Positions 16,423 to 51,247 are shown, counted from the stretch's first letter. The stretch: DNA of 64,000 bases from a virus (IMGVR_UViG_3300046167_000801), one strand, 5' to 3'. Numbers and translations are program-made. The notes: generated by a model from the letters alone, not told the origin.

Positions 16423-16423
16423 T

Positions 16424-26700: not shown

Positions 26701-28115
26701 ACACAAGTAATAGTGGTGGATTGGCAGGTTCTGTCATTGAGATTAAATCACATAACGATGCAACTGATGGTGTTAACTTTGTGGTTAATGGTAACAGTGC
26801 GGTTAGAATCAATGGTAACATTGTGGTTCACGCAGGTAACTATACTTCATACCAACAACACCCAACGATTACCGCGGCTAATTCTTCAGATAACTCGGGT
26901 AGAACATATATACAAGACATCTTATTAGATGGTAACGGACACGTTACGGGTGTTACAACAGCAACAGAGACAGTTACCGATAGTGGAAATGATAATGATA
27001 TAGATTACATAAGTGGAGCTACGTTTGATGATACTACAGGTGTAATTACAGGCACAGGAACAGGTAATGCTGGATTTACTGTCGATATTGATGGTAGGTA
27101 TTTAACTACTGAAACTTATACAGCACACGATAATATTACTGCGGCCACATCTTCTAACAATAGTGGTAGAACGTATGTTCAAGACATTTTAGTAGATGGT
27201 AACGGACACGTTACGGGTATAACTACGGCTACAGAAACAGTCACCGATAGTGGAAATGATAATTACTATGTTGATGGATTAAGTTTCGATACTGGTAATG
27301 GTGTTCTTACGGCGAGTGTGAATGGGGCAACTAATCAGACAGTCGATTTAGACGGTAGGTATTTAGGAACAGGAGACAAGGCGGCAGATTCTGATTTACT
27401 TGATGGTTTAGACCTTCATACGGGACGTAACAATGAGGCAAATAAAGTAGTACGTACAGATGCAAACGGTTATATCCAAGCTGGTTGGATTAATACAACA
27501 TCGGGAGCGAACGGTGCTTCAGATACCATAAGTAGAATTTACGCGTCGGGAGATGGTTATATTAGATATTATAGTAAGGCCGACTTCATTAGTCAATTAG
27601 GTTTAATTACTACAGGTAATATTGGTTCACAATCTGTAAATTATGCAACAACGGCAGGATCGGCGGATATGATTGATGGTGTTGCATTTAGAAACACAAA
27701 TTCAACTGGAGGGATTGATGCGGACTCCTTAAATAGTGCGGGTATCACATACTACACAGGTGGTGTGACAAACTTCTCAGGTAACGCAACTGACGGAGCT
27801 CTTTACTCACAAATATATAGTTCATCATGGCAACATCAAATTGCGGGTGACTATAGAAGTGGACGAATTGCGGTTAGAGGTAAAAATAATAATACTTGGC
27901 AATCTTGGAAAAAGATACCGGCGGTTAATGTTTCTACATTCAGTAATGTGGGTACCGTTACTTTTACCCATGGTTTAGGAACCGACAACGTGATTGTACA
28001 GGTATATGATAGTAATGGTGATTTATTTTTCCCTTCGGCAATAAATTCTTTAAATGGGGTGGTTGTGGTTAAATTTGAAACAAATAGATCAGGAAGAGTA
28101 GTCGTAACAGGATAA
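17784..28115 (+). CDS. Giant modular tail fibre / virion structural protein, 3443 aa
   Basis: Gly/Ser/Thr/Asn-rich, with coiled-coil repeats, a cupredoxin-like insert and shuffled beta-repeats. Fibre-type distal segments (ADSDLLDGLD...VVRTDANGYI, QHQIAGDY...IAVRGKNNNTWQSW) and a C-terminal THGLGTDNVIVQVYD domain. Confidence 0.85.
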   Translation: MNIFDPHITGSLSVSASAEIQGDLTVQGTIYGTAQIDGSVDNAISASHAASYLLTSSFNDYKNTAATTGSNIFIGDQTISGSLLPQGTLTHDLGSDTKRWNDIYLAGSTIDLGGTKITKNSDGDVQLHDSGNTLKRLIASEIELGHGSNKKVLKVNNGRLKLMATNDSDEELAQLSGSFTGSFRGDGSGLINVPASGVTGLSLDRIASTTATASISSDSLITNVSIIPSITNTIDLGAPDKEWRDLYLSSGSLYINGQQVLSTTGTELRVTTDSGESIKILETGSDTITLQTVDGDITLSSSGTGNIELDAPIQITAGNKIISSDGNSIVFGNGLIITGSIGLTGTVDGVDVASLKTDVDAILDSSEADKDSFAEIVGLINSVDTANDQAFAAHYTASNNRLSSLETTSGSHDGRLSSLETTSGSHSSKLNSLELASGSIIERLGEIEFITGSHDGRLDGLETFTGSVDGTIRSDFNSYTSSNDSTNTNQNSRLGSLETKSGSLNTDIKSKLNTENVVSGSEFVLNSTSPITQYVDVTVTASGGVYYIDGVEQQIVSLAKGLVYRFDVSDSSNAGHPFRFSTTDNNQYTDGVTVNGTEGRSGAYVQIIVNQDTPQTLLYYCTNHNGMGNKVFVGGAGDTDSITEGSTNLYYTDARVKSKLNTETVISGSEQVDITNTTNYNLVTNRIGSLESFTASIDDTYASDTDVTTLRNDLNTYTSSNDSTNTNQNSRLGSLETKSGSHDGRLDSIESFTSSIDDTYATDTDVTTLRNDLNTYTSSNDSTNTSQNNRLGSLETKTGSLDSDITDLRGDLNTYTSSNETDKQNLSGRVDSLETKTGSLTTDINTLDGRVDSIESFTASIDDTYATDTDVTNLTNRVGSLETKSGSLETTNTTQNNRLGSLETTSGSHDGRLDSLETKTGSLDTTNTNQDGRLDSIESFTASIDDTYASDTDVTTLRNDLNTYTSSNNTTNQNQDIRLTSLETESGSVRSDFNTYTSSNDSTNTSQNNRLSSLETKTGSLDGNITGLDGRLDTIEGGLEFTGSNVTIKGDLLVKGTETRVDSTTVEIGDNIISLNGSGAQNAGIEVRDNTSPDLLSGSLLWDGQNNYWKGGQKGSEERLLDNTDLTTLDSRLDGIEAETGSYLTDYNNEYTTGATFNSGNGVITFKRNDGDTFTVDIDGRFLDTRAQVHSELYSTNGDANDYTEFGIYRNYASNGPISGHNTILHVSQTDGNYGFQLGGSTIVNGDGLYFRNFAGTDSITGSTWYHIATRDWVDDQNFLTDYNDEYTTGATFNTSDGVITFKRNDGDTFTVDIDGRFLTSYSETDTLDSVTTRGNITTNDITVGNITAGPTLELGGNFSIQGTDGTYYQRIKTIDTSSTSANTFSFDVKLGASANWKSLLILNQNDTATFSGEVIATSFTKSGGTSSQFLKADGSVDSNTYLTQHPPIASPASSNNSGRTYIQDILLDGNGHVTGLTTATETVVNTDTNDIDYVSSATFNTGTGVITGTGVGNAGFTVDIDGRYVELGGGTMTGGLITTNLQVHGGSSQIVLKDTTDDDDHSILFRNNADGDDYKITTKDFTSAATGDGFYLGSTGGDNVALVTNNTTALNIDTSQNSVFSGNVTASSFIKSGGTSSQFLKADGSVDSNTYLTQHPNISAASSSNNSGRTYIQDILLDSNGHVTGLTTASETVTNTDEFTTGATFNTGNGIITFTRNDGDTYTVDIDGRYLTSFTETDPIFTAHAAYNITSTQITNWDTAYGWGDHADENYLTQHPNVNAASSSNNSGRTYIQDILLDGNGHVTGITTSSETVVNTDEYTTGSTFNSGTGIITFTRNDGDTYTVDISATLSEVTVTGGTYDGSSQTLTLTKSDGDTVDVTGFALDTDVNYYLTGATFNTGTGVITYKVKGASDVTVDIDGRYLPLSGGTISSNNTYTLKLENSSNGLGTGIEFSDNPGAGTQRAYITHYHGDGSSYGSGASIVLSTNQPTMTILADGKLMYKEGIYSKPATGTGAGTRKDQNWDTAYGWGDHSTVGYLTGFTETYTEHENISAASSSNNSGRTYIQDILVDSNGHITGITTATETVTNTDTIDYINSATFNTGTGVITGTGVGNAGFTVDIDGRFVKLGGDTMTGTLDVHVPDAGTILSSGNSSATGTPDQFFIKHVNGGVAIGNLRGDINFTSGNLKNDGNLIWDAGDFTSTNISNWDTAYGWGDHSTVGYLTGYTDTNDIDYVNSATFNTGTGVVTLSGVGNAGATVDLDGRYLLDTTDTFTGALTIAGDIRGNGQQLILNAGESYAYATGQTNEYVYINAEQGLEVNSETGNWTVNGWSDRKTALLRGDLLRLDGEDLTKTNIQNFKTAYGWGDHSTEGYVKNDEYTTGATFNSGNGIITFTRNDGDTYTVDVDNRYLQLSGGSLSGNLNMTGTNPMIKFVPTGTNDGAGIRFNYTNNDGEMEFWTSDDYSEPFVWRAYDVGLDGTGNYQEWMKLYQKKLYIDGEELSKTNIQNFKTAYAWGDHSIAGYSEVDYYTTGATFNNGSGTLEFTRNDGNTYSVSLSSALVDVTVTSGTYNSSNQILTLTKSNGSTVDISGFAVDTDVNWYTTSASFNTSNGIITGTHHGGTWTVDIDGRYGLKSLSENKTYTSGGNAVGSYLGGHYSGGGTEKPNSATFGSGKLKIAMLSNTNLGFGGSWNDVLWISAYNGSDVKGSHALVFDKYSTNVYVSDQSYDSASWGTGYQLWHTGHFQQSSINNWNTAYGWGDHSAAGYASGDFLLKSGGTMSGAINMNGSGIDMVNGSISNVNHITIADPGPTEGIEWLGGNGFRIVESPNDLTTNSGGNLQFVKSSTRILTLGSNGQSEFTDKLTLTSSTSGSTIFDIQGTSGQLFSITDDLTGDLFAVSDSSGVPILNVNANGAVTLDPLGSLYVGNNKVINGSGNIEFDGPVTTSNQGRGIYWTGYDKEGTTDFSDTAHILHTSNSGGLAGSVIEIKSHNDATDGVNFVVNGNSAVRINGNIVVHAGNYTSYQQHPTITAANSSDNSGRTYIQDILLDGNGHVTGVTTATETVTDSGNDNDIDYISGATFDDTTGVITGTGTGNAGFTVDIDGRYLTTETYTAHDNITAATSSNNSGRTYVQDILVDGNGHVTGITTATETVTDSGNDNYYVDGLSFDTGNGVLTASVNGATNQTVDLDGRYLGTGDKAADSDLLDGLDLHTGRNNEANKVVRTDANGYIQAGWINTTSGANGASDTISRIYASGDGYIRYYSKADFISQLGLITTGNIGSQSVNYATTAGSADMIDGVAFRNTNSTGGIDADSLNSAGITYYTGGVTNFSGNATDGALYSQIYSSSWQHQIAGDYRSGRIAVRGKNNNTWQSWKKIPAVNVSTFSNVGTVTFTHGLGTDNVIVQVYDSNGDLFFPSAINSLNGVVVVKFETNRSGRVVVTG
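18970..20900 (+). repeat. Coiled-coil repeat region (RLxSLETxSGS / SIDDTYAxDTDVTTLRNDLNTYTSSN units)
   Basis: Many peptide repeats. Exact DNA repeats include 50 nt at 19242-19291 = 19956-20005 and 51 nt at 19892-19942 = 20069-20119. Confidence 0.9.
21230..27370 (+). repeat. Interleaved fibre modules: SNNSGRTYIQDILLDGNGHVTG (6x), TTGATFNxGxGxITFxRNDGDTxTVDIDGR and variants (about 13x), NWDTAYGWGDH (6x)
   Basis: Counted directly in the translation. Confidence 0.9.
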
Positions 28116-28126: not shown

Positions 28127-29266
28127 ATGATTAGAGAAAACGTAATAGTTAGTGGTTCACTTGACGTGAGTGGACAATTTATCATACCAAGAGGTAGTAG
28201 AGGGGAAAGACCTACTTCACCTGAGATAGGTTCTATGTACTTAGAAGAATCTACAAGTGGTAGTTTCGTTGTTACATACACTGGTTCATCTAATTATGAT
28301 GATGGTTGGGAACCAGTGGGTTCGCAAGATACTGACAGAACAGGATTCAAATACAGACAAATAATAAACTATTCATATTTGGCAGGTGGATATAAGTCAG
28401 GTTCACCTTGGAAGAATGTACATAAAACAATTAACGCAACCGACCAAACATCTCACTTAGGTGAGTTATTAGATTACCCTGCAAACTATACCTCAGGGGC
28501 GTGTAGTAAAACTAAATTATTTCTTTGGTCAACAAATACGGATGGTGCTCATAAAGGCGCAACTAACATACACTCAACACATACATCAGGTATTGATATG
28601 GTGAATGAAACAACATACACCCACCAATCTAAATGGGATTTATTAAATGCGAGAGATGATTGTGGTACCCTATTTAAAGAAACGGAGTTTGCGTATGTTT
28701 TTGGTGGATCTGTAGCAACAGTTGAGAAATTCAATTTAACAAATGAGACAATGTATACCACTTATTATCCTGGTGGTTCACCATATGTAACAACAACTTC
28801 ATCTATTACAAGTACTTTAGGTTCATCAGGATTCTCTGATGAAAATTATGGTTACGGTTACGGTTCTGAAAGTGGAAACAAATGTCACTTTGCTACTGAT
28901 GTGTTCGAGACAAGGGCATCCTCATGGGCGTCTAGTGGACAACAGAAAGGGATTAGTTCTAAGGTTGGTAAAGGGTATTGTGGAAATGAAGGTACATATA
29001 ATGGGGGTTATAATTTGAGAAGATGGGATGTCTTTACTGAAACCAATATAGGTAATGTACCTAAACCCCACCAAAATTGTGGTGAAGAAAACTTCACATT
29101 AGGACAAGACCATCAATACATGTTAGCAACATACGATGGTACAGGTCAAACAAATACAAGTTGGAAATTCTCATATACGACAGATACGGGTACGGTAAAT
29201 CCTGCAGGGTTAGCACCAGGTGTTAACGCAGGTGCATCATCAGGACATTGTGGTTGGAGAAATTAA
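28127..29266 (+). CDS. Putative virion beta-propeller (Kelch-like) protein, paralog 1
   Basis: Repeating YxxGG / EKFNLTNET / SKVGKGY / GEENF blades; ends SSGHCGWRN. Confidence 0.65.
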   Translation: MIRENVIVSGSLDVSGQFIIPRGSRGERPTSPEIGSMYLEESTSGSFVVTYTGSSNYDDGWEPVGSQDTDRTGFKYRQIINYSYLAGGYKSGSPWKNVHKTINATDQTSHLGELLDYPANYTSGACSKTKLFLWSTNTDGAHKGATNIHSTHTSGIDMVNETTYTHQSKWDLLNARDDCGTLFKETEFAYVFGGSVATVEKFNLTNETMYTTYYPGGSPYVTTTSSITSTLGSSGFSDENYGYGYGSESGNKCHFATDVFETRASSWASSGQQKGISSKVGKGYCGNEGTYNGGYNLRRWDVFTETNIGNVPKPHQNCGEENFTLGQDHQYMLATYDGTGQTNTSWKFSYTTDTGTVNPAGLAPGVNAGASSGHCGWRN

Positions 29267-29278
29267 CTATTTATAGAT

Positions 29279-30397
29279 ATGATATTTGAAAATTTAGAAA
29301 TTAGTGGGTCGTTAAGAGGTCAGGGAATAACAAGACCACCCTCAGGTGCAAAGGCGGATAGACCTTCCTCACCTGAAAAAGGATCTATGTTCTTAGAAAT
29401 GACGACATCGGGTAGTTTCGACAATAGTTTTCTAATGGTTTACACGGGTAATGGAAATGATTCTGGTTGGGAGAGAATTGCGAATCAAAGTAATTTTGGT
29501 AAAACCAGTTTTAGGTTCAATCAAATTATTAACTACTCTTATTTGGCGGGAGGGTATAAATCCTCATCACCTTGGAAGAATGTACATAAGACGGTAAACT
29601 CTACAGATCAAACATCACACTTGGGTGAATTGTTAGATTATCCTGCATCATATACTTCAGGTGCGTGTAGTAGAACTATTTTCTACGTATGGTCTGTTAA
29701 TAATGATGGTGCATGGAAGAGTGCGAGTAATGTACATGGTACATATACATCTGCGATTAATATGGTAACCGATACTAATTATACACACACCGCTGAGATG
29801 GATACTAATATAGCAAGAAGTGATTTAGGTACGATGCATAAGGAAACAGAAATGGCATATCTTTTTAGTGGGGGTAGTGCCACTGTTGAGTTATTTAATT
29901 TAACCACAGAATCCTTACATACGGCATATACACTATCAACAATAAACGGTAGTGATGGTGGTTCGGCATTTTCGGATGAACTATATGGTTATGGTTGGAC
30001 TTCAAGTGGAGGTGTCAAATTAAACTTTTCAACGGAAACTTTTGCAACATCCCCTCATTGGTCAAACCATTCACAACAAAAAGGTATCTCATCTAAAGTT
30101 GGTAAAGGTTATGCCGGTAATGAAGGTTCATATAGTGGTGGTTATAACTTAAGGAGATGGAGTAATCAAACAGACACCAATATAGGTAATGTTGTCAAAC
30201 CCGATGGTAACTGTGGTGAAGAGAATTTTACTATGGGTCAAGATTGGCAATACATGTTAGGTAATTATAATGGTCTCCAAAACAATAATTCATGGAAATT
30301 TACATACGCAACTGATACGGGTACAACAAGTGTAAGTGGGTTAAATCCCGCAGTAAACGCTGGTACTTCATCAGGTCATTGTGGTTGGAGAGAATAA
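29279..30397 (+). CDS. Putative virion beta-propeller (Kelch-like) protein, paralog 2
   Basis: Colinear with paralog 1; ends SSGHCGWRE; preceded by AACTATTTAT. Confidence 0.65.
   Translation: MIFENLEISGSLRGQGITRPPSGAKADRPSSPEKGSMFLEMTTSGSFDNSFLMVYTGNGNDSGWERIANQSNFGKTSFRFNQIINYSYLAGGYKSSSPWKNVHKTVNSTDQTSHLGELLDYPASYTSGACSRTIFYVWSVNNDGAWKSASNVHGTYTSAINMVTDTNYTHTAEMDTNIARSDLGTMHKETEMAYLFSGGSATVELFNLTTESLHTAYTLSTINGSDGGSAFSDELYGYGWTSSGGVKLNFSTETFATSPHWSNHSQQKGISSKVGKGYAGNEGSYSGGYNLRRWSNQTDTNIGNVVKPDGNCGEENFTMGQDWQYMLGNYNGLQNNNSWKFTYATDTGTTSVSGLNPAVNAGTSSGHCGWRE
30350..30396 (+). repeat. 47-nt exact direct repeat, copy 1 (copy 2 at 31478-31524)
   Basis: GCAGTAAACGCTGGTACTTCATCAGGTCATTGTGGTTGGAGAGAATA at the 3' ends of paralogs 2 and 3. 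Confidence 0.9.
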
Positions 30398-30409
30398 AAT
30401 TTTAAGAAT

Positions 30410-31525
30410 ATGATATACGAAAATATGTCCGTTAGTGGTTCACTTAAAGTGGACAGAGTTACTGCAAGACCACCGAAAGGTGTTAAGTCACAGAGACCAT
30501 CGAACCCATTATCTGGTTCTTTATTCTTGGAAGAATCATCAGAACACACAAGTTATTTAATGGTTTATACGGGTGTGTCTAATGTGGATGAGGGTTGGGA
30601 AAGAATTTCAGCACAACAAAACGAAGGAACTAATTTTAAGTACAGACAAATAATTAATTATTCTTACATCGCCGGTGGATATAAATCCTCATCACCTTGG
30701 AAGAACGTACATAAGGCAACCAACGCAACTGATCAAACAACCCACATTGGTGAGTTATTGGACTATCCCGCAAACTACACATCAGGAGCGTGTAATCTTA
30801 GAATATTTTTTATGTGGTCTGTAAATACGGATAGTGCACATAAAGGACCAACGTCTCTACATAGTAACACAACTTCTGCGGTCAACATGTTTACCGACAC
30901 TAACTACGCCCACCAATCTAACCATGACTTACAATATAGTAGGTCCGATTGTGGAACCATGTGGAAAGAACATGAGTTTGCTTGGATTTTTGCGGGTAAC
31001 AGAACAGAGGTAGATAAATTTAATTTAACTAATGAAACGACAATAACAAACTATGGGGTAACCTCGATAAGTAGTAGTGGTGGAGCGAGTTCTTTTTGTA
31101 ATGAAACCCATGGATATGGATGGAGTACAAGTAGTATAAAAATGGAATTCTCTACGGAGACTATATCAAGTTCATCAAGTTCATGGTCAGCACACGGACA
31201 ACAAAAAGGTATTCCATCTAAAGTTGGTAAGGGTTATGCCGGTAATGAGGGATCTTACCAAGGTGGTTACAATTTGAGAAGATGGGATACATCTACAGAT
31301 ACGAATATTGGTAATGTTGCAAAATTAAGATCGAATTGTGGGGAAGAGAATTTCGCTATGGGCCAAGATTGGCAATACATGTTAGGTTGTTACGGTAGTT
31401 CTTTACAGAATAACGATAGTTGGAAAATGTACTATCAAACAGATACGGGAGTTTTAAATCCCGCGGGTCTTCCACCGGCAGTAAACGCTGGTACTTCATC
31501 AGGTCATTGTGGTTGGAGAGAATAG
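30410..31525 (+). CDS. Putative virion beta-propeller (Kelch-like) protein, paralog 3
   Basis: Colinear with paralogs 1 and 2; ends SSGHCGWRE. Confidence 0.65.
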   Translation: MIYENMSVSGSLKVDRVTARPPKGVKSQRPSNPLSGSLFLEESSEHTSYLMVYTGVSNVDEGWERISAQQNEGTNFKYRQIINYSYIAGGYKSSSPWKNVHKATNATDQTTHIGELLDYPANYTSGACNLRIFFMWSVNTDSAHKGPTSLHSNTTSAVNMFTDTNYAHQSNHDLQYSRSDCGTMWKEHEFAWIFAGNRTEVDKFNLTNETTITNYGVTSISSSGGASSFCNETHGYGWSTSSIKMEFSTETISSSSSSWSAHGQQKGIPSKVGKGYAGNEGSYQGGYNLRRWDTSTDTNIGNVAKLRSNCGEENFAMGQDWQYMLGCYGSSLQNNDSWKMYYQTDTGVLNPAGLPPAVNAGTSSGHCGWRE

Positions 31526-31583: not shown

Positions 31584-32348
31584 ATGAAAGAAGAGTATAA
31601 ATATGAAAAAACCAACAACCTAAAAGATGGTTTAGATACTAAGTTAATTGAAGTTGCGGAACAAGTTTCATTCGCACTACCAAGGTACAAGGCAGAAAAT
31701 TTTGTTGGGGGTGCACAAATAACACCTTATGCGAAACTAAAACAATGGTTACTTGAACTTAGAGGTAGAGAAGACGCCGTAGAACATTTAGAATATACCG
31801 TTAAAAAACAGGATTTGGAAATACAAATCCAAGAGGAGAGTAAAGAATTTTTAACAGACCCTAAAAGAAAACAGTTGGTAGATCTCACAATTTCAGATAT
31901 GAAAATAGATCTTAGAAAATTTAAAAGAAATCTTAAAGATGCTTACATAGAGAGACAAGGTTTTATTGATTTAATAAAAGATTTCTTAGATACTGACGAT
32001 GCTAAACTACCTGATGGTAGTGATTTAATTGATGTAATCGGTAATAAAGAATTAGAAGATAAATTTGAACATGAGTATTGGACTGTTAGGATGGCAAAAC
32101 AAGCAATGTTAGATATGATTTCATATGGTAGGATCGGTACAGGTAACTTGGATTCTATTTTAATGATGTCCGCAGAACAACAAAAACAAGTTTTATCTCT
32201 CGCTTCTTCTTACACAGTATTTATAGATAAGAACATTAATCAATTAATGGCAAACGCAACTACAAATAGTTTCTCAATAGAAGAGTCATTGAGAAAACAA
32301 TTAAAGTTGGGGGAGGCAGATAAACCTGATACTGAAAAACTTTTATAA
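31584..32348 (+). CDS. Helical/coiled-coil protein, possibly a virion-assembly factor
   Basis: ENFVGGAQITPYAKLKQWLLEL followed by a heptad-rich segment; function inferred from position only. Confidence 0.5.
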   Translation: MKEEYKYEKTNNLKDGLDTKLIEVAEQVSFALPRYKAENFVGGAQITPYAKLKQWLLELRGREDAVEHLEYTVKKQDLEIQIQEESKEFLTDPKRKQLVDLTISDMKIDLRKFKRNLKDAYIERQGFIDLIKDFLDTDDAKLPDGSDLIDVIGNKELEDKFEHEYWTVRMAKQAMLDMISYGRIGTGNLDSILMMSAEQQKQVLSLASSYTVFIDKNINQLMANATTNSFSIEESLRKQLKLGEADKPDTEKLL

Positions 32349-33088
32349 TGAGACATATTATTTTTAAAATAACCGGAAACATACCTGGATACATACGAGT
32401 TGTTGGGTCCTACATGAATTACTATTATGGGCGTATTGATGACATCTATGACGATATGAGGTTGGAGTTAGATAAACTAAATGCATCGGTAATTACTGAA
32501 GAAGAAGGTAAGGGTTTCATTTTCGCTGACATATACAAAGATTATATTAGTATTAGAACTAATTCATCGCTGATGGATGAGGTTCCGGTCTTAGCCGAAT
32601 CTTCAGAAACTGATGAAGAAAAAGTTAAGTATACACTTACTCAGGAAGATAGGGATTTAGGTGTTGTTTTTAATAAAGTGGTTTTATTAAAAGTTATTTC
32701 AGATAGATTTTATACGAGACATAAAGATTTAATGGTTGATGCATCTAACTTAGAAAAGGATACTTGGGAAGAACAAAAAAGAGAGGCGTTTGCATATCAA
32801 TTAGATAATTCGTATTCAACACCCGTTATTGACATACTTTCATCTGGTAGAGGTATTGATAAACAAGTTTTGGTTGATAAAATAATATCTAACGTAACAT
32901 CTTATAATACAAAATTAGCAACTTTATTACTTGAACAACAATTATTAGAACAAAGAGTAAAAGATTGTGTCACTTTGGCGGATTGTCACAGACTCAAACA
33001 CGAGAAGTTTGGTATCTCCTTAAGTAAACAACAAAGAGAAGAGGAAGGAATTGAGAGCACCCCATTGACACTGAAGATGGATTTCTAA
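32348..33088 (+). CDS. Putative tail fibre assembly chaperone-like protein
   Basis: EKDTWEEQKREA...TPVIDILSSGRGIDKQVLVDKI resembles phage fibre-assembly proteins. Confidence 0.55.
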   Translation: MRHIIFKITGNIPGYIRVVGSYMNYYYGRIDDIYDDMRLELDKLNASVITEEEGKGFIFADIYKDYISIRTNSSLMDEVPVLAESSETDEEKVKYTLTQEDRDLGVVFNKVVLLKVISDRFYTRHKDLMVDASNLEKDTWEEQKREAFAYQLDNSYSTPVIDILSSGRGIDKQVLVDKIISNVTSYNTKLATLLLEQQLLEQRVKDCVTLADCHRLKHEKFGISLSKQQREEEGIESTPLTLKMDF

Positions 33089-33098
33089 AAAAAACTAA

Positions 33099-34097
33099 AT
33101 GAATTTAGCAATAAATGGTACATGTGCTAAAGGTTGTTCTTTCTGTTTCACAAAAGAAGATGCGAGACTAAAACATACTCTTGGTGAGATGTCAATAGAA
33201 AAAGTAGGTGAACTACTTGATCATTTTGATATTGAAGGATCTAGAGAGGAGGTTACAATACTTGGAGGGGAACCCACACAACATTCAAATTTTATGGGTC
33301 TGATGGATTATATAATCTCAAGAGGTTATAAGGTTAATCTTGTCAGTAATTTACTATTTGGTAAAAGAACCTTAGATTATATAACAAACAACATAAAACA
33401 TATTAGGTGGATATTACCTAATGGTGCTGAGTTGGATGAAAAAAATAGGTTAAATCTATTTAAGAAAAACTACTTATCACTTTACTCAACCTATGCAAAC
33501 ACATGGGGATTTGAGGACAATTCAAGATTATTTATTGCAATAACACTTTCGTCCGATTGGAAGGAAAGAAAAATGTTTGAATACATTAAGTGGTTATATC
33601 ATGCTTTGGATGGTAAATTAAATGCAATAAGGTTAGGTTTAGATTTAACAGGTACTTACCTAATTAACAATAAAGAAATGGGTAAAGAAGTTACTAAGAT
33701 ATTAAAGTTTGGACTTTACAATAATATTCAAGTGACCTCTGATTGTCAAGTACCACCGTGTTTGTGGGAGGGGGGAAACAAACAATCAATTATGGAGAAC
33801 TCTTTAGGGTTCGCGACTTTCAAAATACCAGGTTACGATAAAATTTGTGGTTTCATGCCTTTAGATATATTCCCTGATGGATCCTCAATACACTGTTACC
33901 CATTACAAGATAAAGTTAAGATAGATAATGTATTGAAAATATCGGGAGAAAACAATATATTATCATTGAGGGATAAGTTCGATGATTTATATCGAGAAAA
34001 CCATAAAGATTATAGTATACCACAAGATTGTTTAGATTGTGTTTTTTATAAAACAGAATGTAATGGTATTTGTGGAGGTTGTTTAGAAAATGAGTAA
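33099..34097 (+). CDS. Radical SAM protein with C-terminal SPASM-like Cys cluster
   Basis: CAKGCSFC and GGEPT; C-terminal CG...IHC...CLDC...CNGICGGC. Confidence 0.9.
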   Translation: MNLAINGTCAKGCSFCFTKEDARLKHTLGEMSIEKVGELLDHFDIEGSREEVTILGGEPTQHSNFMGLMDYIISRGYKVNLVSNLLFGKRTLDYITNNIKHIRWILPNGAELDEKNRLNLFKKNYLSLYSTYANTWGFEDNSRLFIAITLSSDWKERKMFEYIKWLYHALDGKLNAIRLGLDLTGTYLINNKEMGKEVTKILKFGLYNNIQVTSDCQVPPCLWEGGNKQSIMENSLGFATFKIPGYDKICGFMPLDIFPDGSSIHCYPLQDKVKIDNVLKISGENNILSLRDKFDDLYRENHKDYSIPQDCLDCVFYKTECNGICGGCLENE

Positions 34098-35130
34098 AAT
34101 ATTCTCAATACCATTAAATCCTATGTTAAGTGAACAGGCGTTCACACATGTATTCTATCCATTTCTACAAAAGAATAAGGATTGGATATATGATATATAC
34201 TTTACCTGTAGAATACCCCCTTTTACTCAGGATGCTATGGGGTCTGTTATAAATGAAGACGATAGATATTCAGTTTTTGATAATGCGTTGATGATACAGG
34301 AGACTTTAGGTATAAAAATTAGTGCTACATTCAATAATTTTAACGTGTCTCCCAAATATGAAAATTATAAATTATTTATTGAAAACTTAAAACCACTTTA
34401 TGATAAAGGTTTAAGGTCCATGACGATACCTCACGGTCATTGGGTGGCTATGGGTTTAAAGGACCATTTTCCTGAGATGCATATTAAAAATACCATACTC
34501 AGGAAGGTTAATACCGCACAAGATTTTTGGTACTCCGCCGAACAAGGGTTTGACTACATTAATGTTGATAGAATATTGATGAGGGATATGGAGGAACTAA
34601 AGAACATTAGAAGAGCACAACTCATGTTTCAACAAAAACATGGTAGATACGTTGAGATTGCGTTATTAACAAATGAAGGTTGTTTAGGTAGATGTCCCGT
34701 TATGGATGAACACTACTCATATAATAACTTAAGAAAACCTAACGAATTACCGTATTTTCACCATGAGATATCAAAAGTCACATGTGAACATAAATGGGAA
34801 AACGAAATCGGTGCGTTCTTCTTTAAAACTGCAACCATACCACCATTTAAAAAAGAATTTGATGAATACCTAAATCATATCGATATCTATAAAATGCATG
34901 GTAGGGATAGTTTTGATAGATTAAATGAAACTATGGAAATAGTGGAATCTTATTCACAAGGTAAGGACATCTTATCAAAATCCTCAGAAATATATTTAGA
35001 TGGTGTCCCTCATGAAGAGTTAAGGGGTTGGAGAAATAAGATCAAGAAATGTAAATTTCAATGTTGGGATTGTAATTATTGTGATATTGTCTCTGAACAC
35101 AAAAAAAAGAAATTAAATGGATCTAATTAA
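34090..35130 (+). CDS. U32-family (UbiU/TrhP/RlhA-like) Fe-S protein
   Basis: TIM-barrel-type pattern GFDYINVDR..MRD, EIALLTNEGCLGRCP, YKMHGRD and C-terminal CKFQCWDCNYC. Confidence 0.7.
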   Translation: MSKIFSIPLNPMLSEQAFTHVFYPFLQKNKDWIYDIYFTCRIPPFTQDAMGSVINEDDRYSVFDNALMIQETLGIKISATFNNFNVSPKYENYKLFIENLKPLYDKGLRSMTIPHGHWVAMGLKDHFPEMHIKNTILRKVNTAQDFWYSAEQGFDYINVDRILMRDMEELKNIRRAQLMFQQKHGRYVEIALLTNEGCLGRCPVMDEHYSYNNLRKPNELPYFHHEISKVTCEHKWENEIGAFFFKTATIPPFKKEFDEYLNHIDIYKMHGRDSFDRLNETMEIVESYSQGKDILSKSSEIYLDGVPHEELRGWRNKIKKCKFQCWDCNYCDIVSEHKKKKLNGSN

Positions 35131-35782
35131 ACACATTGATGAATCCATTGAGTGGGGGAATAGAGAGGTTTCTAAACTTAACCAAGACGTACTCAACATT
35201 CACGGTATCACTAGTAACAAAGTTAGATGTTTCTTAAATAACCTATGTTCAATAGGTGGGACTTATTTGGAGATAGGTGTCTTCAGAGGAGCAACTTTTT
35301 GTTCATCAATCTACAATAATGATAATCTTCACAGTATAGGTATTGATAATTTTGCATCACCCAACCTTATGCCGATGGGTGTGAGTCAGAAATTAGCAAC
35401 ATATTTAAAACAAGGTATTGACACCCCACCACAAGAAGATTTTTTAAATAATGTTAAGAGGTTTGGAAAAACTGAACAGATTGACGTTTATAAAACAGAC
35501 TATACCACATTTGATTACACCCAACTACCTAAGTTAGATATTATATTTTATGACGGGGATACTAAATTCCATGATCAGTATGTTACACTTAAAAAATTAA
35601 TCCCCCAATTCTCAGACAAAACAATACTCATAATGGATGATTGGAATTGGAACAGTGGTGCGTTAGATCGAGTGATACACGAGGAAAAACTATTTGTGAC
35701 CCATCAAAGAGAAATTTATACAAGTGGTGAGGATATGTCAGATTTTTGGAATGGATTGGGTATTTTTTTATTTGAAAGGTAG
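35117..35782 (+). CDS. Class I SAM-dependent methyltransferase (Methyltransf_24-like)
   Basis: YLEIGVFRGATF, GIDNF, DIIFYDGD and ILIMDDWNW. Confidence 0.85.
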   Translation: MDLIKHIDESIEWGNREVSKLNQDVLNIHGITSNKVRCFLNNLCSIGGTYLEIGVFRGATFCSSIYNNDNLHSIGIDNFASPNLMPMGVSQKLATYLKQGIDTPPQEDFLNNVKRFGKTEQIDVYKTDYTTFDYTQLPKLDIIFYDGDTKFHDQYVTLKKLIPQFSDKTILIMDDWNWNSGALDRVIHEEKLFVTHQREIYTSGEDMSDFWNGLGIFLFER

Positions 35783-35833: not shown

Positions 35834-36691
35834 ATGCAAAAATTAATATTATCAATATTGTTAGTGTTAGGAACACATCAATTATCGGCACAATACTCGG
35901 GACGAGCACTTAGTAATGGTCAACAAGACAGTACACAAGTTAAAAAATTAAACGAGGTTGTAGTTACAGCCAAAAAGTATAGTCAATTCGAATTAGTGGG
36001 TGAGAATAACCAACCCGCTTGGACATTAGTAAGAAAATTTCCATCAACCAGAACTTATATTATGGTCCCTAAGGGTACTGTGATGTATGAAAAATGGTTC
36101 GATATGAGAACACCAAGAGGTGGTGACCCAACAGAAGTTAGAATGAGAGATGAGATTGCATTTGGTCTAGCTAATAGATTAGAGTTGGATCTATATATTC
36201 ACACAGTTTATAAATCTGATGGGTATGAATCTTCATACGGTTTCAGAGGGTTTTCGTGGGAGATAAGATACGCACTTGCCGAATGGGGTAAGATATGGGG
36301 TAATCCAACTTTGTACTTTGAACACAAATTATTGGATGGTAAATACCAAGGTATAGAACCAAAACTACTTTTAGGTGATCGTATTGGTAAAAGAGGAATA
36401 TGGGGCGTAAACTTAATTTATGAGGCGTATACTGCACCAACACGAGAAGACCAAAAAAGAGAGTACGCTTATACCGCATCTTATGGTCAGGTAATAAATG
36501 ATGATTTAACGATAGGTCTGTCTAACATGTTTAGACATAACGATGTAGATGGTTCAAATGAATGGTATGTTGGACCCGCACTACAATATAGATTTAACGG
36601 TAATGCATATGTAAACTTTGAATTACTGCCAGGTCTTAATGAAGATGCGAAGAAGTTTAGAAATACCATTATTTTTGGATGGAGATTCTAA
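35834..36691 (+). CDS. Outer-membrane beta-barrel protein with signal peptide
   Basis: Signal peptide MQKLILSILLVLGTHQLSA-Q, KKLNEVVVTAK (TonB-box-like), alternating amphipathic strands and a terminal FGWRF. Confidence 0.75.
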   Translation: MQKLILSILLVLGTHQLSAQYSGRALSNGQQDSTQVKKLNEVVVTAKKYSQFELVGENNQPAWTLVRKFPSTRTYIMVPKGTVMYEKWFDMRTPRGGDPTEVRMRDEIAFGLANRLELDLYIHTVYKSDGYESSYGFRGFSWEIRYALAEWGKIWGNPTLYFEHKLLDGKYQGIEPKLLLGDRIGKRGIWGVNLIYEAYTAPTREDQKREYAYTASYGQVINDDLTIGLSNMFRHNDVDGSNEWYVGPALQYRFNGNAYVNFELLPGLNEDAKKFRNTIIFGWRF

Positions 36692-37692
36692 TTAAAAACC
36701 AAGACTTCCTACTTTACTTAGGATTCATTATGGTCATAACGGGAATCCTAAAAGAAAAGGGATACCTTACTGACGTATTTAGTCTTTTACTAAAGACAGT
36801 GAAATCAAAGAAAATAGTTTTATTTCTAATTTCACTATTTGGTGGGGTTTTACCGATACCTGGTAGGGTTGCGGTTTCTGCGGGAATACTCGATACAATT
36901 GCCCCAAAAGATAAGAGGGGTAGGGAGAATTATGGTATCATAGATTACCTATCAACACACCACTATTACATATGGTCACCTTTAGAGAAAACGGTAATCA
37001 TACCTATGGCGATATTAGGTGTAACTTATGGAGAACTAATCAATATATTGTATCCACTTTTAATTATATCTTTATTAGTTATATGTGGTTTTATATATAA
37101 ATTTGAAGACGGTAATATAGAAATACCAAAAATCCATAAGATCAATTATAAGAACGTTTATCTTATATTCTTACCGTTCATACTAACATTGGTATTATCG
37201 GGTCTTACGGATCGTTATTTACCTTTATTTTGTGGTTTTACTCTGTACTTAGTCAGTTACTCTAACTCGTGGGGTAAATTACTTAAACACGTCAATTGGA
37301 AATTGGTAATTAGTGTAGGGGTTGTGATTGTATTTTCTAATTTCATATCTCAATACAATGAACAAATAAAAACATATTTAGAGGGGGTTACCACAACTTA
37401 TAATATTTTTTTGGTTGGAGGTTTATGTTTCTTGAGTTCGTTCTTATTGGGGTCATCAGGTAAATACGCGGGAATAGTTTCAATAGTCAGCTCAATAGTG
37501 GGTATTGAATATTTTCTTTTCTTATTTACAATGTGTTACTCAGGTTATTTATTATCTCCAACACATAAGTGTGTTTACATAGGACAACAATATTTTGGTA
37601 CTCCCATAAAAAAATATATCTCATCCATTTCGGTATGGACAATAATTATGATAGTCTACAGTGTTTTAGACTTGACTTTTAAATTAAAATAA
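36679..37692 (+). CDS. Polytopic inner-membrane transporter (DUF401 / ion-transporter-superfamily-like)
   Basis: About 10 hydrophobic helices; GGVLPIPGRVAVSA and GYLLSPTHKC motifs. Confidence 0.65.
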   Translation: MEILIKNQDFLLYLGFIMVITGILKEKGYLTDVFSLLLKTVKSKKIVLFLISLFGGVLPIPGRVAVSAGILDTIAPKDKRGRENYGIIDYLSTHHYYIWSPLEKTVIIPMAILGVTYGELINILYPLLIISLLVICGFIYKFEDGNIEIPKIHKINYKNVYLIFLPFILTLVLSGLTDRYLPLFCGFTLYLVSYSNSWGKLLKHVNWKLVISVGVVIVFSNFISQYNEQIKTYLEGVTTTYNIFLVGGLCFLSSFLLGSSGKYAGIVSIVSSIVGIEYFLFLFTMCYSGYLLSPTHKCVYIGQQYFGTPIKKYISSISVWTIIMIVYSVLDLTFKLK

Positions 37693-38162: not shown

Positions 38163-39263
38163 TTAAACTTTTCTTTTAATCACAATTTTCAAATTTCCGA
38201 TTTGATATTCCCCTACATCGTAGTGTGGAATTGATAATCGGATTTTGTTTATTACATGAAGATCTTCTTCGTTCATTGGTTCGGTCTCGATTATCGTAAC
38301 ATCCACCATATCAGTTAATAGAAATTTAGATCTTAAATCGTAGTTGGTATTAGGTTGTTCGTTTGCAATATATTCAGTGGGTGTGGTACCCCCTAAATAC
38401 AATTTATCAAAATAAGGTTCCAACTTATATAGGTGTCTATCACTCCTCAATTTAATACCCATATTAAAAGTGGGGTAATTAAAAATTTCGTCCTCCCAAT
38501 AATACAGTTCATTAAAAGTGGGTATGGTAATCCCCCATTTACGTATAAAGTTACGTATGTTTCTGTGTTCACTTAATTTACTTTCTTCGGACCTTAATAC
38601 TCTACTGGTTTTAGAAACAAAATGATATACTACGGCACATTCAGTTGTTTTAAGTAGGTAACCCTTTAATTTGGCTCTAATAATGAAATCATCATCTTCA
38701 CAGAAAAAAGGGTCAAAAGTAAAACCATCGAATAAACCAACATCAATAAATGTTTTCTTATAACCCGACATAAAAAATGTGGCCCCATTAACTAATTCCT
38801 TTCTTTCCTTAACTTTGTCAACGTATTGATCAAACAAGTGGTAATTAAAATCATTAAACCCTCTACCCAATTCTAATATAACTTTACCAGGTCTCTTATG
38901 TCCCTTAAAAATAGGGGGTTCAATAGTGGTATATGTGATGAGAGACTTTTCATCAATTAGTTCTGATAAATTCTCTAAAAAATTCTTACCGATCACCATA
39001 TCATTATGAATCAAAACCAATTTATCAGTATCAACTAACTTGATCGCCGAATTATAATTGTCTGAGAAAGTTAATTGATCGTCATCATGTATGTAGGAAA
39101 GGTTATCATCATCCAAAGACTGTAACCAATCTAATGTACCATCCGTAGACCCACCACTACTAATAACCATAGGGGCATCAGGGTATATATCCCTAATCCT
39201 TTTATGTGTATTCTTAGTATAATCTAAGTTATTAAAAACGGCAAGTACTAAAGAGATATCCAT
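38163..39263 (-). CDS. GT2 glycosyltransferase
   Basis: SLVLAVFNN, GGSTDGT, VLIHNDMV, FCEDDDF and VYHFVSKTSR. Confidence 0.9.
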   Translation of the reverse strand: MDISLVLAVFNNLDYTKNTHKRIRDIYPDAPMVISSGGSTDGTLDWLQSLDDDNLSYIHDDDQLTFSDNYNSAIKLVDTDKLVLIHNDMVIGKNFLENLSELIDEKSLITYTTIEPPIFKGHKRPGKVILELGRGFNDFNYHLFDQYVDKVKERKELVNGATFFMSGYKKTFIDVGLFDGFTFDPFFCEDDDFIIRAKLKGYLLKTTECAVVYHFVSKTSRVLRSEESKLSEHRNIRNFIRKWGITIPTFNELYYWEDEIFNYPTFNMGIKLRSDRHLYKLEPYFDKLYLGGTTPTEYIANEQPNTNYDLRSKFLLTDMVDVTIIETEPMNEEDLHVINKIRLSIPHYDVGEYQIGNLKIVIKRKV

Positions 39264-39865
39264 TACTTATTGGTGTTATCGAATATTGAAATGAATAGTC
39301 GTTCGAAGATCCACGGACCTAATACTTTATTGACACATAATTCATTAGCCCTTTTATAAAACTCCACACTTCTCATTCTGATAGTGTCTCTACTAACCGC
39401 AAATATTGCACCGGCGGTAAATGGATATAGTTCAAGAGGTGGATTTTCAAATAGTTCTACCCAAACACCATTTATGTCCATACCTCCGTGATGGGGAGTC
39501 CCGTTTGGTCTCGAATGTAAAACTCTTTTAAAGGGTCCATCACTAAAAAATAGTAACTCATTAGGTTTTTCAAAAACCACTGATTTGGTAATATTTGGAA
39601 ACTCTTTTAAAACCTCTTTGTAATTTCTAACGTGATCAAATGGGTGTCCTTGAGTAAAGAATACCCACTCACCTAAATTATCATAATTTTTTATTATGTG
39701 GGTTAGATAGGTGTTACCTTCTCGACCAACGTTAGGTAAATTAATTGAACCTTCGATAGGTTCCCCTTTATTATATAAGAAAATTCTATAATCAGAAAAC
39801 TCTGATAACCAAGATATGTCTTCTCTATATCTACTTACTATTAAATCACCTTTGTAGTTCATCAT
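39263..39865 (-). CDS. DUF3431 family protein (putative glycosyltransferase-like)
   Basis: IVSRYREDISWL, LPNVGREGNTYLTHII, FTQGHPFDH, GAIFAVSRDTI and FERL. Confidence 0.85.
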   Translation of the reverse strand: MMNYKGDLIVSRYREDISWLSEFSDYRIFLYNKGEPIEGSINLPNVGREGNTYLTHIIKNYDNLGEWVFFTQGHPFDHVRNYKEVLKEFPNITKSVVFEKPNELLFFSDGPFKRVLHSRPNGTPHHGGMDINGVWVELFENPPLELYPFTAGAIFAVSRDTIRMRSVEFYKRANELCVNKVLGPWIFERLFISIFDNTNK

Positions 39866-40475
39866 AATAGTTATTTTGTTTTTCTTGTTTCTTAATATCT
39901 TTATGATGTATTAGTGAAAATGTTTCGTCCTCAGGTAAGTTGGTGTACGTGTTATAGTTTACTAACCTTTCATGTACCTTACCATACCATCTTATCCTAC
40001 CCTCTCTTTTCCATATTCTTGTTTGTGCGTCAGGAAAATTAACCCATCCTTTTGAGTTTACATTCCATCCCCACTTCTTAATGTGCTCTTCCGTCAAACC
40101 CTCAACAGTGTTTACTCTTGAAATTAAGAATACTTCGTTTTTAGGGTTGGCCTCAAGTATCGTTGGTAGGTAATTAATTAAATTTGTATGAGGCATTTCA
40201 TCTGCATCGATTTGAAAAATATAATCACCGTTACAGTAATCTGAAAGTTCATTCTTCCACTCACCAAAATGACCTTCAAAGAAACCTCTCCACATTTGGA
40301 AGTTAGGTAACTTATTATGTTTAATTAACCATTCAGCAATCTCCTCAGAACCATTTTTATGATCGTACAAAATGACTATCTCATCTTTAGGTCTTTTAAT
40401 TCTAAGTAGAAATTCAACCAATCGTTTTATTTCCTCGAATTCATTACAGACAGTTATAGCATAACTAATTTTCAT
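39846..40475 (-). CDS. GT2 glycosyltransferase
   Basis: ISYAITVCNE, YIFQIDADE, FPDAQTRIWK and KVHE. Confidence 0.9.
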   Translation of the reverse strand: MKISYAITVCNEFEEIKRLVEFLLRIKRPKDEIVILYDHKNGSEEIAEWLIKHNKLPNFQMWRGFFEGHFGEWKNELSDYCNGDYIFQIDADEMPHTNLINYLPTILEANPKNEVFLISRVNTVEGLTEEHIKKWGWNVNSKGWVNFPDAQTRIWKREGRIRWYGKVHERLVNYNTYTNLPEDETFSLIHHKDIKKQEKQNNYYDELQR

Positions 40476-41324
40476 CTATAAGGTTTTTATATAGTCTTCC
40501 AATCTATCTTTAGGTGACCAACCTAATTTATTTAAAGTATCGTCATTCTCTCTTTTAGTGGATCTATAATTACCTGGTTGATCAGGTATATTAATTTTTG
40601 GGTGATCACCAAACCTTTCAGTAAACATATTGTAAACTTGATTTATTGAGTAATTCATACCTGTTCCTAATTCCCATGCATCTTCATGTTTTTCATTTCC
40701 TGTACCCACTTTATAAAGTGCGTCAACGATGTCAATAACATGAGTGAAATCTCTTCTTTGTTCCCCATCACCAACTATCGTAATAGGTTCCCCTTTTGAT
40801 ACTTGGTGTCTCCATATACCTATCACTGCAGCCCATGTACCATCCACCAATTCGTTAGGACCATACACGTTATAAAATCTACAGATCTCGAAGTCACAAC
40901 CATAAGCGGTTCTGTACATTTTGAATATATCTTCACCTGTTCTCTTATAAGTTGCGTACGGAGATGTTTGAGGGTTGCACCATCTTGAGGAGGAACCCGC
41001 ATAAACCACTTTAATATTGTTTTCCTTAGCCCAATCAGCAACATACTGACAACCACCAGCATTAACTCTAAATGTTTCAGTAGGGTCATCAAACGAGGGT
41101 TGTATTCTTGACAACGCAGCTAAATGATAACATATATCAAAATTACCACCTATCGAATTGATTTGTTCGATGTCATTGTAATGGTAATCACACCCATCTA
41201 TTTCGTATTCTTTTAATCCCGTAGATAGGTCATCAATTGAGGACACTTCGTGACCCTCATCCATTAATCTACTGATTAAATTGGAACCAATAAACCCGTT
41301 CCCTCCTGTTACTAAAATTTTCAT
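40476..41324 (-). CDS. NAD-dependent epimerase/dehydratase (extended SDR)
   Basis: ILVTGGNGFIGS, HLAA, SPYATYK (YxxxK), RFYNVYGP and RDFTHV. Confidence 0.95.
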   Translation of the reverse strand: MKILVTGGNGFIGSNLISRLMDEGHEVSSIDDLSTGLKEYEIDGCDYHYNDIEQINSIGGNFDICYHLAALSRIQPSFDDPTETFRVNAGGCQYVADWAKENNIKVVYAGSSSRWCNPQTSPYATYKRTGEDIFKMYRTAYGCDFEICRFYNVYGPNELVDGTWAAVIGIWRHQVSKGEPITIVGDGEQRRDFTHVIDIVDALYKVGTGNEKHEDAWELGTGMNYSINQVYNMFTERFGDHPKINIPDQPGNYRSTKRENDDTLNKLGWSPKDRLEDYIKTL

Positions 41325-41328
41325 ACTA

Positions 41329-42591: not shown

Positions 42592-42597
42592 GTTGAT

Positions 42598-42834
42598 TTA
42601 ATCTTCGGTTTGTTTATTTATAAACTCTTGAGGAAAATATTTCGTTAAGGTTGATAATTTATCATCAGCATCAACCAACATTGATAACGCCTCCTCTGCG
42701 TTTTTATAGAAGTCACCTGTTGAGTGATCCCCAATACCTGATCCTTTGTTACCTAAAAGATCTAAAGTTAATAACGCTTTTGATTTTTCTGCCAAGGCGT
42801 TAGTTCTTAGCATATCGATTAATTTAGTGTTCAT
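42598..42834 (-). CDS. Hypothetical protein, 78 aa
   Basis: Embedded in the operon; has GIGDHS. Confidence 0.7.
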   Translation of the reverse strand: MNTKLIDMLRTNALAEKSKALLTLDLLGNKGSGIGDHSTGDFYKNAEEALSMLVDADDKLSTLTKYFPQEFINKQTED

Positions 42835-42836
42835 AG

Positions 42837-47020: not shown

Positions 47021-47037
47021 TTGAACGATAACCTTTA

Positions 47038-47568: not shown

Positions 47569-47574
47569 TTAATT

Positions 47575-49496: not shown

Positions 49497-49500
49497 AACC

Positions 49501-49704: not shown

Positions 49705-49789
49705 AATTTTATAAATATTATTATAAATACCTATATAAATTACTAAAATAACACTACACAATTATTTTTTTTTCACCTAAATTATTGGT

Positions 49790-51240: not shown

Positions 51241-51247
51241 TTATAAT

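Follow-up and report, generated by a model that had tools for sequence, protein, structure and literature searches.

A 64,000-nucleotide stretch of viral DNA (IMGVR_UViG_3300046167_000801; here the window, with a GC content of 32%) carries five tightly packed genes at positions 31584 to 35782, whose predicted catalytic core is a U32-fold iron-sulfur (Fe-S) TIM-barrel protein (O4) together with a cation-dependent-type S-adenosylmethionine (SAM) O-methyltransferase (O5). The best explanation of the locus, which we hold at somewhat less than an even chance, is a U32-like/O-methyltransferase module for which nucleic acid is the leading candidate target. A preliminary description of these genes had proposed that a substrate is first hydroxylated and then methylated, and for O4 and O5 this reading is well founded by analogy, because O4 has a predicted U32 fold, O5 resembles TrmR, and the two proteins are fused in most relatives. 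The same description had treated the radical SAM enzyme (O3), the U32 protein and the methyltransferase as a conserved trio. In our survey the conserved unit is instead O1 and the U32-like gene, with or without the methyltransferase and the DUF401 gene (O7), and without the radical SAM gene. The letters O1 to O8 denote the open reading frames (ORFs) in order from position 31584. Gene structure, folds, fusions, synteny and co-distribution were computed here; all chemistry and the target are what we infer.

A predicted U32-fold protein and its methyltransferase partner

O4 (34090–35130, plus strand) has no match in Pfam or NCBIfam, the Peptidase_U32 model included, and a direct sequence search against the PDB gave nothing useful for O3, O4 or O5. 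Its assignment comes from an AlphaFold2 model built on a 36-sequence alignment, with a predicted local distance difference test (pLDDT) score of 84.9 and a predicted template-modelling (pTM) score of 0.84. The model points to a U32-type TIM-barrel fold, with U32 proteins leading all four structure libraries that were searched. Mk0906 (5d88) ranked first in the PDB. Among the Swiss-Prot models of the AlphaFold Database, MJ1657 came first over the full length (TM 0.65/0.67, E 6e-12), followed by TrhP, TrhP1/2 and PrtC, with generic TIM barrels trailing at about 1e-5. The AlphaFold Database clusters that matched the fold include ones named 'Peptidase U32', and in the ESM Atlas viral clusters matched O4 at a TM of about 0.9, one of them automatically named 'Peptidase U32 (Fragment)'; in a viral Atlas cluster of this fold, 20% of the members reach PF01136. 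The earlier identification of the 34090 product as a U32 protein thus stands for the fold in four structure libraries, whereas the Pfam U32 model never matches. We regard O4 as a U32-fold, U32-like protein rather than a demonstrated member of the family.

The invariant residues of O4 fall into four groups, N-E196-G-C198-x-G-R-C202-P, C232, K268-M-H-G-R272 and C321-x3-C-x2-C-x2-C331, which hold seven invariant cysteines. The G-R-C in the cysteine loop and the K-M-H-G-R element parallel the G-R-C and K-I-E-G-R of UbiU, TrhP and RlhA. The O4 family comprises 439 clusters at 50% identity. Some of its members, such as P0230 (579 aa), carry a Cys-rich N-terminal extension of 230 aa. Two relatives of 400–460 aa (P0285 and P0297) were considered as bridges to orthodox U32 proteins and rejected.

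O5 (35117–35782, plus strand), a methyltransferase in the original annotation, is a class I SAM methyltransferase, probably of TrmR/COMT-like type. Its match to Methyltransf_24 (PF13578) scores 29.3 bits (cut-off 26.3), and no NCBIfam equivalog was found for it. A family profile made from standalone and fused homologs gave one real PDB match, B. subtilis YrrM/TrmR (5zw3, E 0.0024), in which SAM motif I (LEIGxxxG) is aligned, as are the two acidic motifs, F-Y-D-G with F-I-D-A and D-D-x-N-W with T-D-N-V-L-F. In most relatives the O4 and O5 homologs are a single protein of 540–570 aa. Both map to one protein cluster, phrog_1458, of which O4 covers positions 1–296 and O5 positions 303–519, and some fused homologs bear the JGI label 'O-methyltransferase YrrM'.

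The five genes are organised as first described. O1 (31584–32348) and O2 (32348–33088) overlap by 1 nt, a 10-nt gap separates O2 from O3 (33099–34097), and O3/O4 and O4/O5 overlap by 8 and 14 nt, all on the plus strand. They directly follow a 3443-aa fibre ORF (17784–28115) and three paralogous phrog_1417 'propeller' genes (28127–31525, plus strand; starts at 28127, 29279 and 30410) that are 60–62% identical and are inherited together with the module; this position was confirmed, and the same order recurs in 80 related viral contigs. A promoter of their own (TTT-N20-TATATT), which had also been proposed, is not supported. The gap upstream of O1 is just 58 nt, and between 27.9 and 38.4 kb there is no excess either of sigma-70-like sites (41, against 49.6 +/- 7.6 in shuffles) or of the T4 late-type motif TATAAATA (13 seen, 16.3 expected). 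Across all the fibre, propeller and O1–O5 genes there are short contigs in the RNA libraries of three studies, and these contigs span the O1/O2, O2/O3 and O3/O4 junctions. They are consistent with a single message, and DNA carry-over could also produce them; as they report presence only, uncovered stretches, such as the prop3/O1 junction among the listed pieces, carry no weight. The phage is common in seawater, with 99% of sampled words present in 14 DNA runs from many studies. By CheckV, related contigs of 145–251 kb are 39–85% complete, which implies a genome of 300 kb or more.

Distribution and composition of the module

The distribution of each gene was surveyed in 50,697 sequenced phage records. 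O4 homologs occur in 126 of them (Synechococcus 77, Cyanophage 38, Prochlorococcus 8, Ralstonia 3), and O1 in 126 with the same breakdown by organism and host. The propeller is found in 123, that is, the same counts minus Ralstonia. O2 has homologs in 114 records (113 cyanophages and one Pasteurella phage), while DUF401 is seen in 12, every one a U32-positive phage. Since the core T4-like helicase is present in 419 cyanomyovirus records, against 123 cyanophage records bearing the module, about 29% of cyanomyoviruses carry the module, an accessory island gained and lost as a set.

Gene order tells a similar story at two distances. In the 80 close viral contigs the order is rigid: fibre, three propellers, O1, O2, O3, O4, O5, (O6), O7, O8. 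About 100 distant contigs, reached with remote O4 queries, keep propeller or He_PIG paralogs, O1, (O2) and the U32-methyltransferase, with propeller identities of 27–55% and with DUF401 often directly behind the U32-methyltransferase or a few kb away. The suggested synteny survey therefore upholds the link of the U32-methyltransferase pair to propeller or fibre genes in these loci, and not the constancy of the trio. In T4-like phages the link nearly always holds. The U32-like gene is also found apart from fibre and propeller genes, which in part tells against the original proposal by its own terms. In the Ralstonia jumbo phages RP12 and RP31, O1, O4 and DUF401 are contiguous and overlapping, with neither propeller nor methyltransferase; the RP31 O4 is 42% identical to that of the window with every conserved cysteine kept, and its DUF401 protein 37%. 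Standalone O4 homologs (about 51% identical) belong to a conserved block in which U32-like gene, 90-aa gene, dCTP deaminase and DNA ligase lie amid replication genes, again apart from fibre and propeller genes. In P-SSM4 the fused gene abuts denV and DNA methylases, and in S-ShM2 O1 is parted from the U32-methyltransferase by petE and gnd.

Two contigs show further surroundings of U32-like genes. Positions 1–7238 of L090, a contig binned to a Syntrophaceae metagenome-assembled genome, hold two U32-like genes in tandem ahead of a GNAT-like gene, TauE, CysD (PAPS_reduct) and CysNC, a context unlike any phage locus. On a 224-kb phage contig (L091, 3771–9650), the genes just upstream of a standalone U32-like gene code for an intein-containing DnaB helicase, an HD-domain protein, a 725-aa dCache-GGDEF-EAL protein and a Band 7 protein.

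O3 is a radical SAM protein, SPASM-like by motif only. It matches PF04055 at 40.5 bits (cut-off 29.5), and its CX3CX2C site (C9/C13/C16) is invariant in 26 homologs down to 29% identity. The other cysteines invariant in this set are C216/C221, C250-x10-G-x4-C266 and C311-x2-C314-x6-C321-x3-C325(-x2-C328), a C-terminal spacing that fits the SPASM signature CX9-15GX4C ... CX2CX5-6CX3C ... C. No SPASM hidden Markov model (HMM) matches O3, so the description of O3 as a radical SAM-SPASM enzyme stands in its first half, and in its second half as a cysteine pattern. A profile of O3 searched against the PDB found GDGT-MAS, SkfB, viperin-like proteins, SuiB and PqqE through the N-terminal core only, and hhalign with E. 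coli AslB likewise aligned the radical SAM core alone.

The presumed trio is not a general feature of these phages: O3 has no homolog in the 50,697 records, is absent from all 126 U32-positive phages among them and is missing from most metagenomic relatives, being confined to the clade of the window, to L092–L095 and to the L084/L154 clade. In these three clades it always lies directly upstream of O4, and in bacterial clusters of the ESM Atlas (Acidobacteriota, Bacillota) a radical SAM domain is fused with a U32-like barrel, so that the pairing recurs outside phages. For these two reasons O3 probably cooperates with O4, without being ancestral to the module. Other radical SAM proteins are encoded upstream of fibre genes: two (458 and 522 aa; 5870–7246 and 7832–9400) in the glycan island upstream of the fibre ORF in the window, and a B12-binding one upstream of the fibre genes of L084.

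The propellers had been proposed as the substrate through their shared C terminus. All three indeed end in SSGHCGWR(N/E), a tail that is one among many invariant blocks they share, and the generic form SS[GA]xxxWRx-COOH is a feature of the propeller family with or without the radical SAM gene. The independent clade L084/L154 carries the gene and has Cys-less tails (e.g. SSGTGGWRD, SSGAGAWRD), while phages without it may end in SSGHCGWRD (L148) or SSGHCGFRE (L105). The His-Cys tail is thus no specific signal of a radical SAM substrate, and its cysteine was rejected in that role. Cyanophage-type propellers lack the SS[GA]xxxWR tail altogether and retain the U32-methyltransferase.

O1 (254 aa, all-helical), the steady companion of the U32-like gene, matches phrog_1409 (E 3e-46) and RP31 ORF137 (hhalign 99.4%). 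Its AlphaFold2 model (pLDDT 88) is a long helical bundle for which searches of the PDB and the Atlas returned no significant fold relative, and the Atlas feature search was empty. O2 (246 aa; phrog_1604, E 4e-24) has no Pfam match, tail-fibre assembly models (Caudo_TAP) included. In feature space alone, its Atlas neighbours are Caudo_TAP, HI1402_helical and XkdW clusters (0.91, 170 shared features), which makes it a possible relative of tail-fibre assembly proteins. The label 'chaperone' attached to the operon therefore finds a weak lead for O2, in feature space, and none for O1. O7 (36679–37692, plus strand), an accessory partner of the module, encodes a polytopic membrane protein that matches DUF401 (PF04165) at 48.8 bits (cut-off 24) and falls under the TIGR00529 equivalog cut-off; its gene overlaps the U32-like gene in RP31 and directly follows the U32-methyltransferase in several contigs. 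The gene ahead of it (35834–36691) has a 285-aa product that bears a signal peptide and matches the MetA-pathway outer-membrane barrel family weakly. This gene is kept in some close relatives; L005–L012 have about 1.8 kb of other sequence instead, with the DUF401 gene behind it retained.

Proposed chemistry and target

In the literature, U32 proteins belong almost entirely to bacteria, with some members in archaea, and most of their twelve subfamilies lack a known substrate (PMC10990095). Two members, TrhP and RlhA, are needed for the oxygen-independent, prephenate-dependent C5 hydroxylation of U34 and C2501, respectively, and in B. subtilis trhP1 and trhP2 form one operon with trmR, yrrM-yrrN-yrrO (PMC6599085; PMC6158493), in agreement with the preliminary description. 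For UbiU/V the substrate is the ubiquinone ring, which they hydroxylate with oxygen donated by prephenate, a chemistry proposed to be shared by U32 proteins (PMC10990095). By analogy with TrhP, RlhA and UbiU/V, O4 would most likely hydroxylate an sp2 carbon of an aromatic or heteroaromatic ring, independently of dioxygen and with prephenate as the oxygen donor, and O5 would methylate the new hydroxyl to give a methoxy group. O1 always stands alongside this putative core, and the DUF401 membrane protein often does. O3 would be a later insertion directly upstream of O4 in a few uncultured lineages and probably assists or extends the U32 step.

As to the substrate, we tentatively propose C5 of a pyrimidine in nucleic acid, which by analogy could be a tRNA wobble U as in TrhP/TrmR, a nucleotide or a DNA base. 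We lean towards a nucleic-acid target in view of the precedent of the U32 family, the relationship of O5 to TrmR, the dCTP-deaminase/ligase context of standalone homologs, the DNA-repair and methylase neighbours in P-SSM4 and the finding that the tRNA machinery for 5-oxyuridine derivatives (xo5U) has been repurposed by phages for DNA (PMC12783734). Codons in xo5U-decoded boxes make up 32–35% of the fibre and propeller genes, against 24.4 +/- 3.2% elsewhere; a tRNA role would fit, weakly, the co-inheritance with these Ser/Thr/Ala-rich fibre genes. In its most specific form the proposal is that the module writes 5-methoxypyrimidine into DNA, the nucleotide pool or tRNA by an oxygen-independent, prephenate-driven route in cyanomyoviruses (~30%), the jumbo-phage clade of the window and the Ralstonia jumbo phages, with the radical SAM lineages having an extended version. 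This fuller reading is improbable.

Functions that could support U32 chemistry are encoded elsewhere in the window, and are suggestive only. A type II chorismate mutase (48974–49273, plus strand; PF01817, 47 bits, cut-off 27) might supply prephenate, an IscA-like A-type Fe-S cluster carrier (51248–51577, plus strand; PF01521, 54.8 bits) might supply the cluster, and a flavodoxin-fold reductase accompanies them. All three belong to a block at 46182–51577 that runs from the flavodoxin-fold NAD(P)H oxidoreductase through ThyA (340 aa), an abutting YciA/4HBT-type thioesterase and the chorismate mutase, whose ORF overlaps that of the thioesterase by 17 nt, to the IscA-type carrier. A chorismate mutase is unusual cargo for a phage: none of the 50,697 records has a homolog, and the gene is seen only on contigs of the closest relatives, being missing from the P-SSM4, S-ShM2 and RP31 genomes and from 10 long U32-positive contigs.

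A number of results weigh against a U32-like/O-methyltransferase module that modifies nucleic acid. The first group concerns the family assignment. None of 36 O4 family members matches Peptidase_U32 (PF01136) even at E <= 10, nor does anything in the P-SSM4 or RP31 genomes. The residues essential in TrhP, E162, C170 and C177, constitute the U32 motif E-x7-C-x6-C, whereas O4 has the spacing NEGC-x3-C. O4 also bears an additional C-terminal Cys4 motif, C-x3-C-x2-C-x2-C, and lacks the RNA-associated U32_C (Peptidase_U32_C) domain. In hhalign, its profile aligned to a four-sequence E. coli U32 profile with a probability of 4.6%, the alignment ending before the Cys-motif region. The spacing (x3 rather than x6), the extra Cys4 motif and this profile-profile value are why O4 is called only U32-like, and the match of O5 to TrmR (E 0.0024) is itself weak. 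A second group concerns the target. A scan of the window returned no tRNA genes, and coupling to a membrane protein (DUF401) is unexpected for an enzyme that acts on nucleic acid. The chorismate mutase was rejected as a general partner of the U32-like gene on account of its clade-specific distribution, and the nearby ThyA was rejected as a hydroxymethylase, being a genuine thymidylate synthase. Finally, in T4-like phages the module nearly always adjoins propeller or fibre genes, the propeller, O1 and O4 sharing the same 123 cyanophage counts, and where O1 is split from O4 (S-ShM2, L099, L102) it remains beside the propellers.

This last set of observations, namely adjacency, co-distribution and the loyalty of O1 to the propellers, favours a role linked to the virion. 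On this reading O2 would be a fibre-assembly factor within the module, which, joined by O3 in the lineages that have it, would tailor the proteins of the distal fibre or the propellers, or the glycans on them. Hydroxylation and O-methylation of an aromatic side chain would be one example, with O1 as the adaptor presenting the structural protein. The order propeller, O1, (O2), U32-methyltransferase is held in about 100 distant loci; the equal counts of 123 among 419 helicase records indicate that propeller, O1 and O4 are gained and lost together; O2 is near tail-fibre assembly proteins in feature space; the module genes are co-oriented with the late structural genes and placed after them; and a glycan-modification island surrounds the block. 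In L084, a distant phage bearing the radical SAM gene, weak 2-oxoglutarate (2OG)-Fe(II)-oxygenase-like and Asp/Asn beta-hydroxylase (AspH)-like genes and a Peptidase_S74 gene (273–1686) lie just upstream of three He_PIG paralogs, a hint of protein hydroxylation as a possible theme in the neighbourhood of these fibre genes. Yet U32 proteins are not known to have proteins as substrates, RP12 and RP31 have O1-O4-DUF401 without a propeller homolog, and standalone O4 homologs reside in replication and nucleotide blocks. Neither does the tail evidence help, as SS[GA]xxxWR is missing from cyanophage-type propellers that keep the U32-methyltransferase and the His-Cys form does not track the radical SAM gene, and a single mobile island could explain the co-inheritance. 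Tailoring of the virion is possible, and on balance we doubt it.

The island in question (555–17692 and 38163–44213) encloses the fibre-propeller-operon block. Its upstream part encodes a Methyltransf_24 protein, GT2, two GT7-like + Laminin_G_3 proteins, DUF6071, a UDP-glucose dehydrogenase, a Nol-like carbamoyltransferase and DUF6734; its downstream part, on the minus strand, encodes two GT2 proteins, DUF3431, an NAD-dependent epimerase/dehydratase and two further glycosyltransferases. A dTDP-4-dehydrorhamnose 3,5-epimerase at 56625–57167 (RmlC equivalog, 184 bits) is further evidence for nucleotide-sugar metabolism in this phage. An Rfam scan of the window gave no matches.

Another substrate to consider is a small molecule. 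As UbiU/V and UbiG do, O4 and O5 could modify a lipid or metabolite that contains a ring, for instance a quinone precursor, with DUF401 and the outer-membrane barrel encoded at 35834 moving the substrate, the oxygen donor or a by-product across the envelope. UbiU/V are themselves U32 quinol-ring hydroxylases whose step is followed by O-methylation (PMC10990095). DUF401 homologs are found in U32-positive phages only, and RP31 shows translational coupling of DUF401 with the U32-like gene, but such homologs occur in just 12 of the 126 U32-positive records. Similarly, the 4HBT/YciA-like thioesterase, the chorismate mutase and the flavodoxin-fold NAD(P)H oxidoreductase of the window would suit such a pathway, but their genes are 11–14 kb away beside an ordinary ThyA. 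The nearest solved relative of O5 is a tRNA enzyme and not UbiG, and the plastoquinone of cyanobacteria is not known to carry methoxy groups. We consider this alternative unlikely.

It is very unlikely that the five genes share no pathway and are simply packed where the fibre block meets a hypervariable accessory region, with O1 and O2 in the service of the fibres and each of O3, O4 and O5 working on its own: T4-like phages do pack unrelated accessory genes tightly, stop/start overlaps are common in phage genomes, the radical SAM gene is dispensable, and petE and gnd separate O1 from the U32-methyltransferase in S-ShM2, but O4 and O5 are fused in most relatives, O1 and O4 share their distribution even in an unrelated phage lineage, and the radical SAM gene is directly upstream of O4 in three separate clades, with radical SAM–U32-like fusions in bacteria.

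The phage-specific U32-like family is large, with its 439 clusters and 126 sequenced phages that include the long-studied P-SSM4, Syn19 and S-RIM2. Every database record of it is annotated 'hypothetical', and a literature search found no paper on phage U32 proteins of this type, nor anything relevant on 'sericin-like' virion proteins. Knowing the substrate would tell what an accessory module common among ocean phages does and would be a test for prephenate-dependent hydroxylation in viruses; a new modification of nucleic acid or of the virion, with a bearing on host range or defence evasion, might also come to light. The 5-methoxypyrimidine route, if true, would be a nucleic-acid modification not described for any virus. 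Since cultured phages carry the fused gene, the experiments are straightforward.

Comparison with known systems

The closest parallel is the route from tRNA U34 through 5-hydroxyuridine (ho5U) to 5-methoxyuridine (mo5U), catalysed by TrhP1/TrhP2 and TrmR in B. subtilis (yrrO-yrrN-yrrM), with TrhP as the E. coli counterpart. Both systems genetically pair a U32-type protein with a SAM O-methyltransferase, the predicted fold of O4 matches the models of TrhP, TrhP1 and TrhP2, and Fe-S-dependent, oxygen-independent chemistry would be expected of O4 by analogy. Unlike TrhP, O4 fails the Pfam U32 model, has C-x3-C in place of C-x6-C, is devoid of Peptidase_U32_C and carries the extra C-terminal C-x3-C-x2-C-x2-C. 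The phage genes also differ from those of Bacillus in usually being fused, and nothing in the bacterial system corresponds to O1 or DUF401.

The short archaeal U32 protein MJ1657 and Mk0906 (5d88) are the best full-length structural matches to the O4 model and are of similar size (~330 aa). Their identity with O4 is, however, just 15–16%, and as both are uncharacterised they add no functional information. UbiU/UbiV, acting with UbiT and UbiG, share with the module the U32 fold and, by analogy, the hydroxylate-then-O-methylate logic, the need for a 4Fe-4S cluster and prephenate as the donor, together with an accessory protein and a membrane context. In contrast to that system, the module has no SCP2-type UbiT homolog, O1 being a helical bundle; O5 is not UbiG-like by sequence; and hhalign gives a weak profile match to UbiU (4.6%).

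O3 resembles the SPASM/twitch radical SAM enzymes (anSME, SkfB, SuiB, PqqE, GDGT-MAS) in its CX3CX2C site, in its core, which is most similar to that of this subgroup, and in its C-terminal cysteine pattern. It departs from them in that SPASM HMMs are silent on it, AslB aligns with its core only, no precursor peptide or sulfatase is encoded nearby, and its gene is coupled to a U32-like gene.

The true homologs of the pair are the proteins of phrog_1458, or cyanophage T4-GC 354 (P-SSM4 gp035, S-ShM2_051), which represent the fused O4+O5 form at 42–45% identity; the lineage of the window differs in having the gene split in two and the radical SAM gene inserted upstream. The logic that combines a U32 protein with an O-methyltransferase is already known in bacteria. 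What is new here is its phage-specific, fused and motif-divergent form, accompanied by O1, DUF401 and an optional radical SAM protein.

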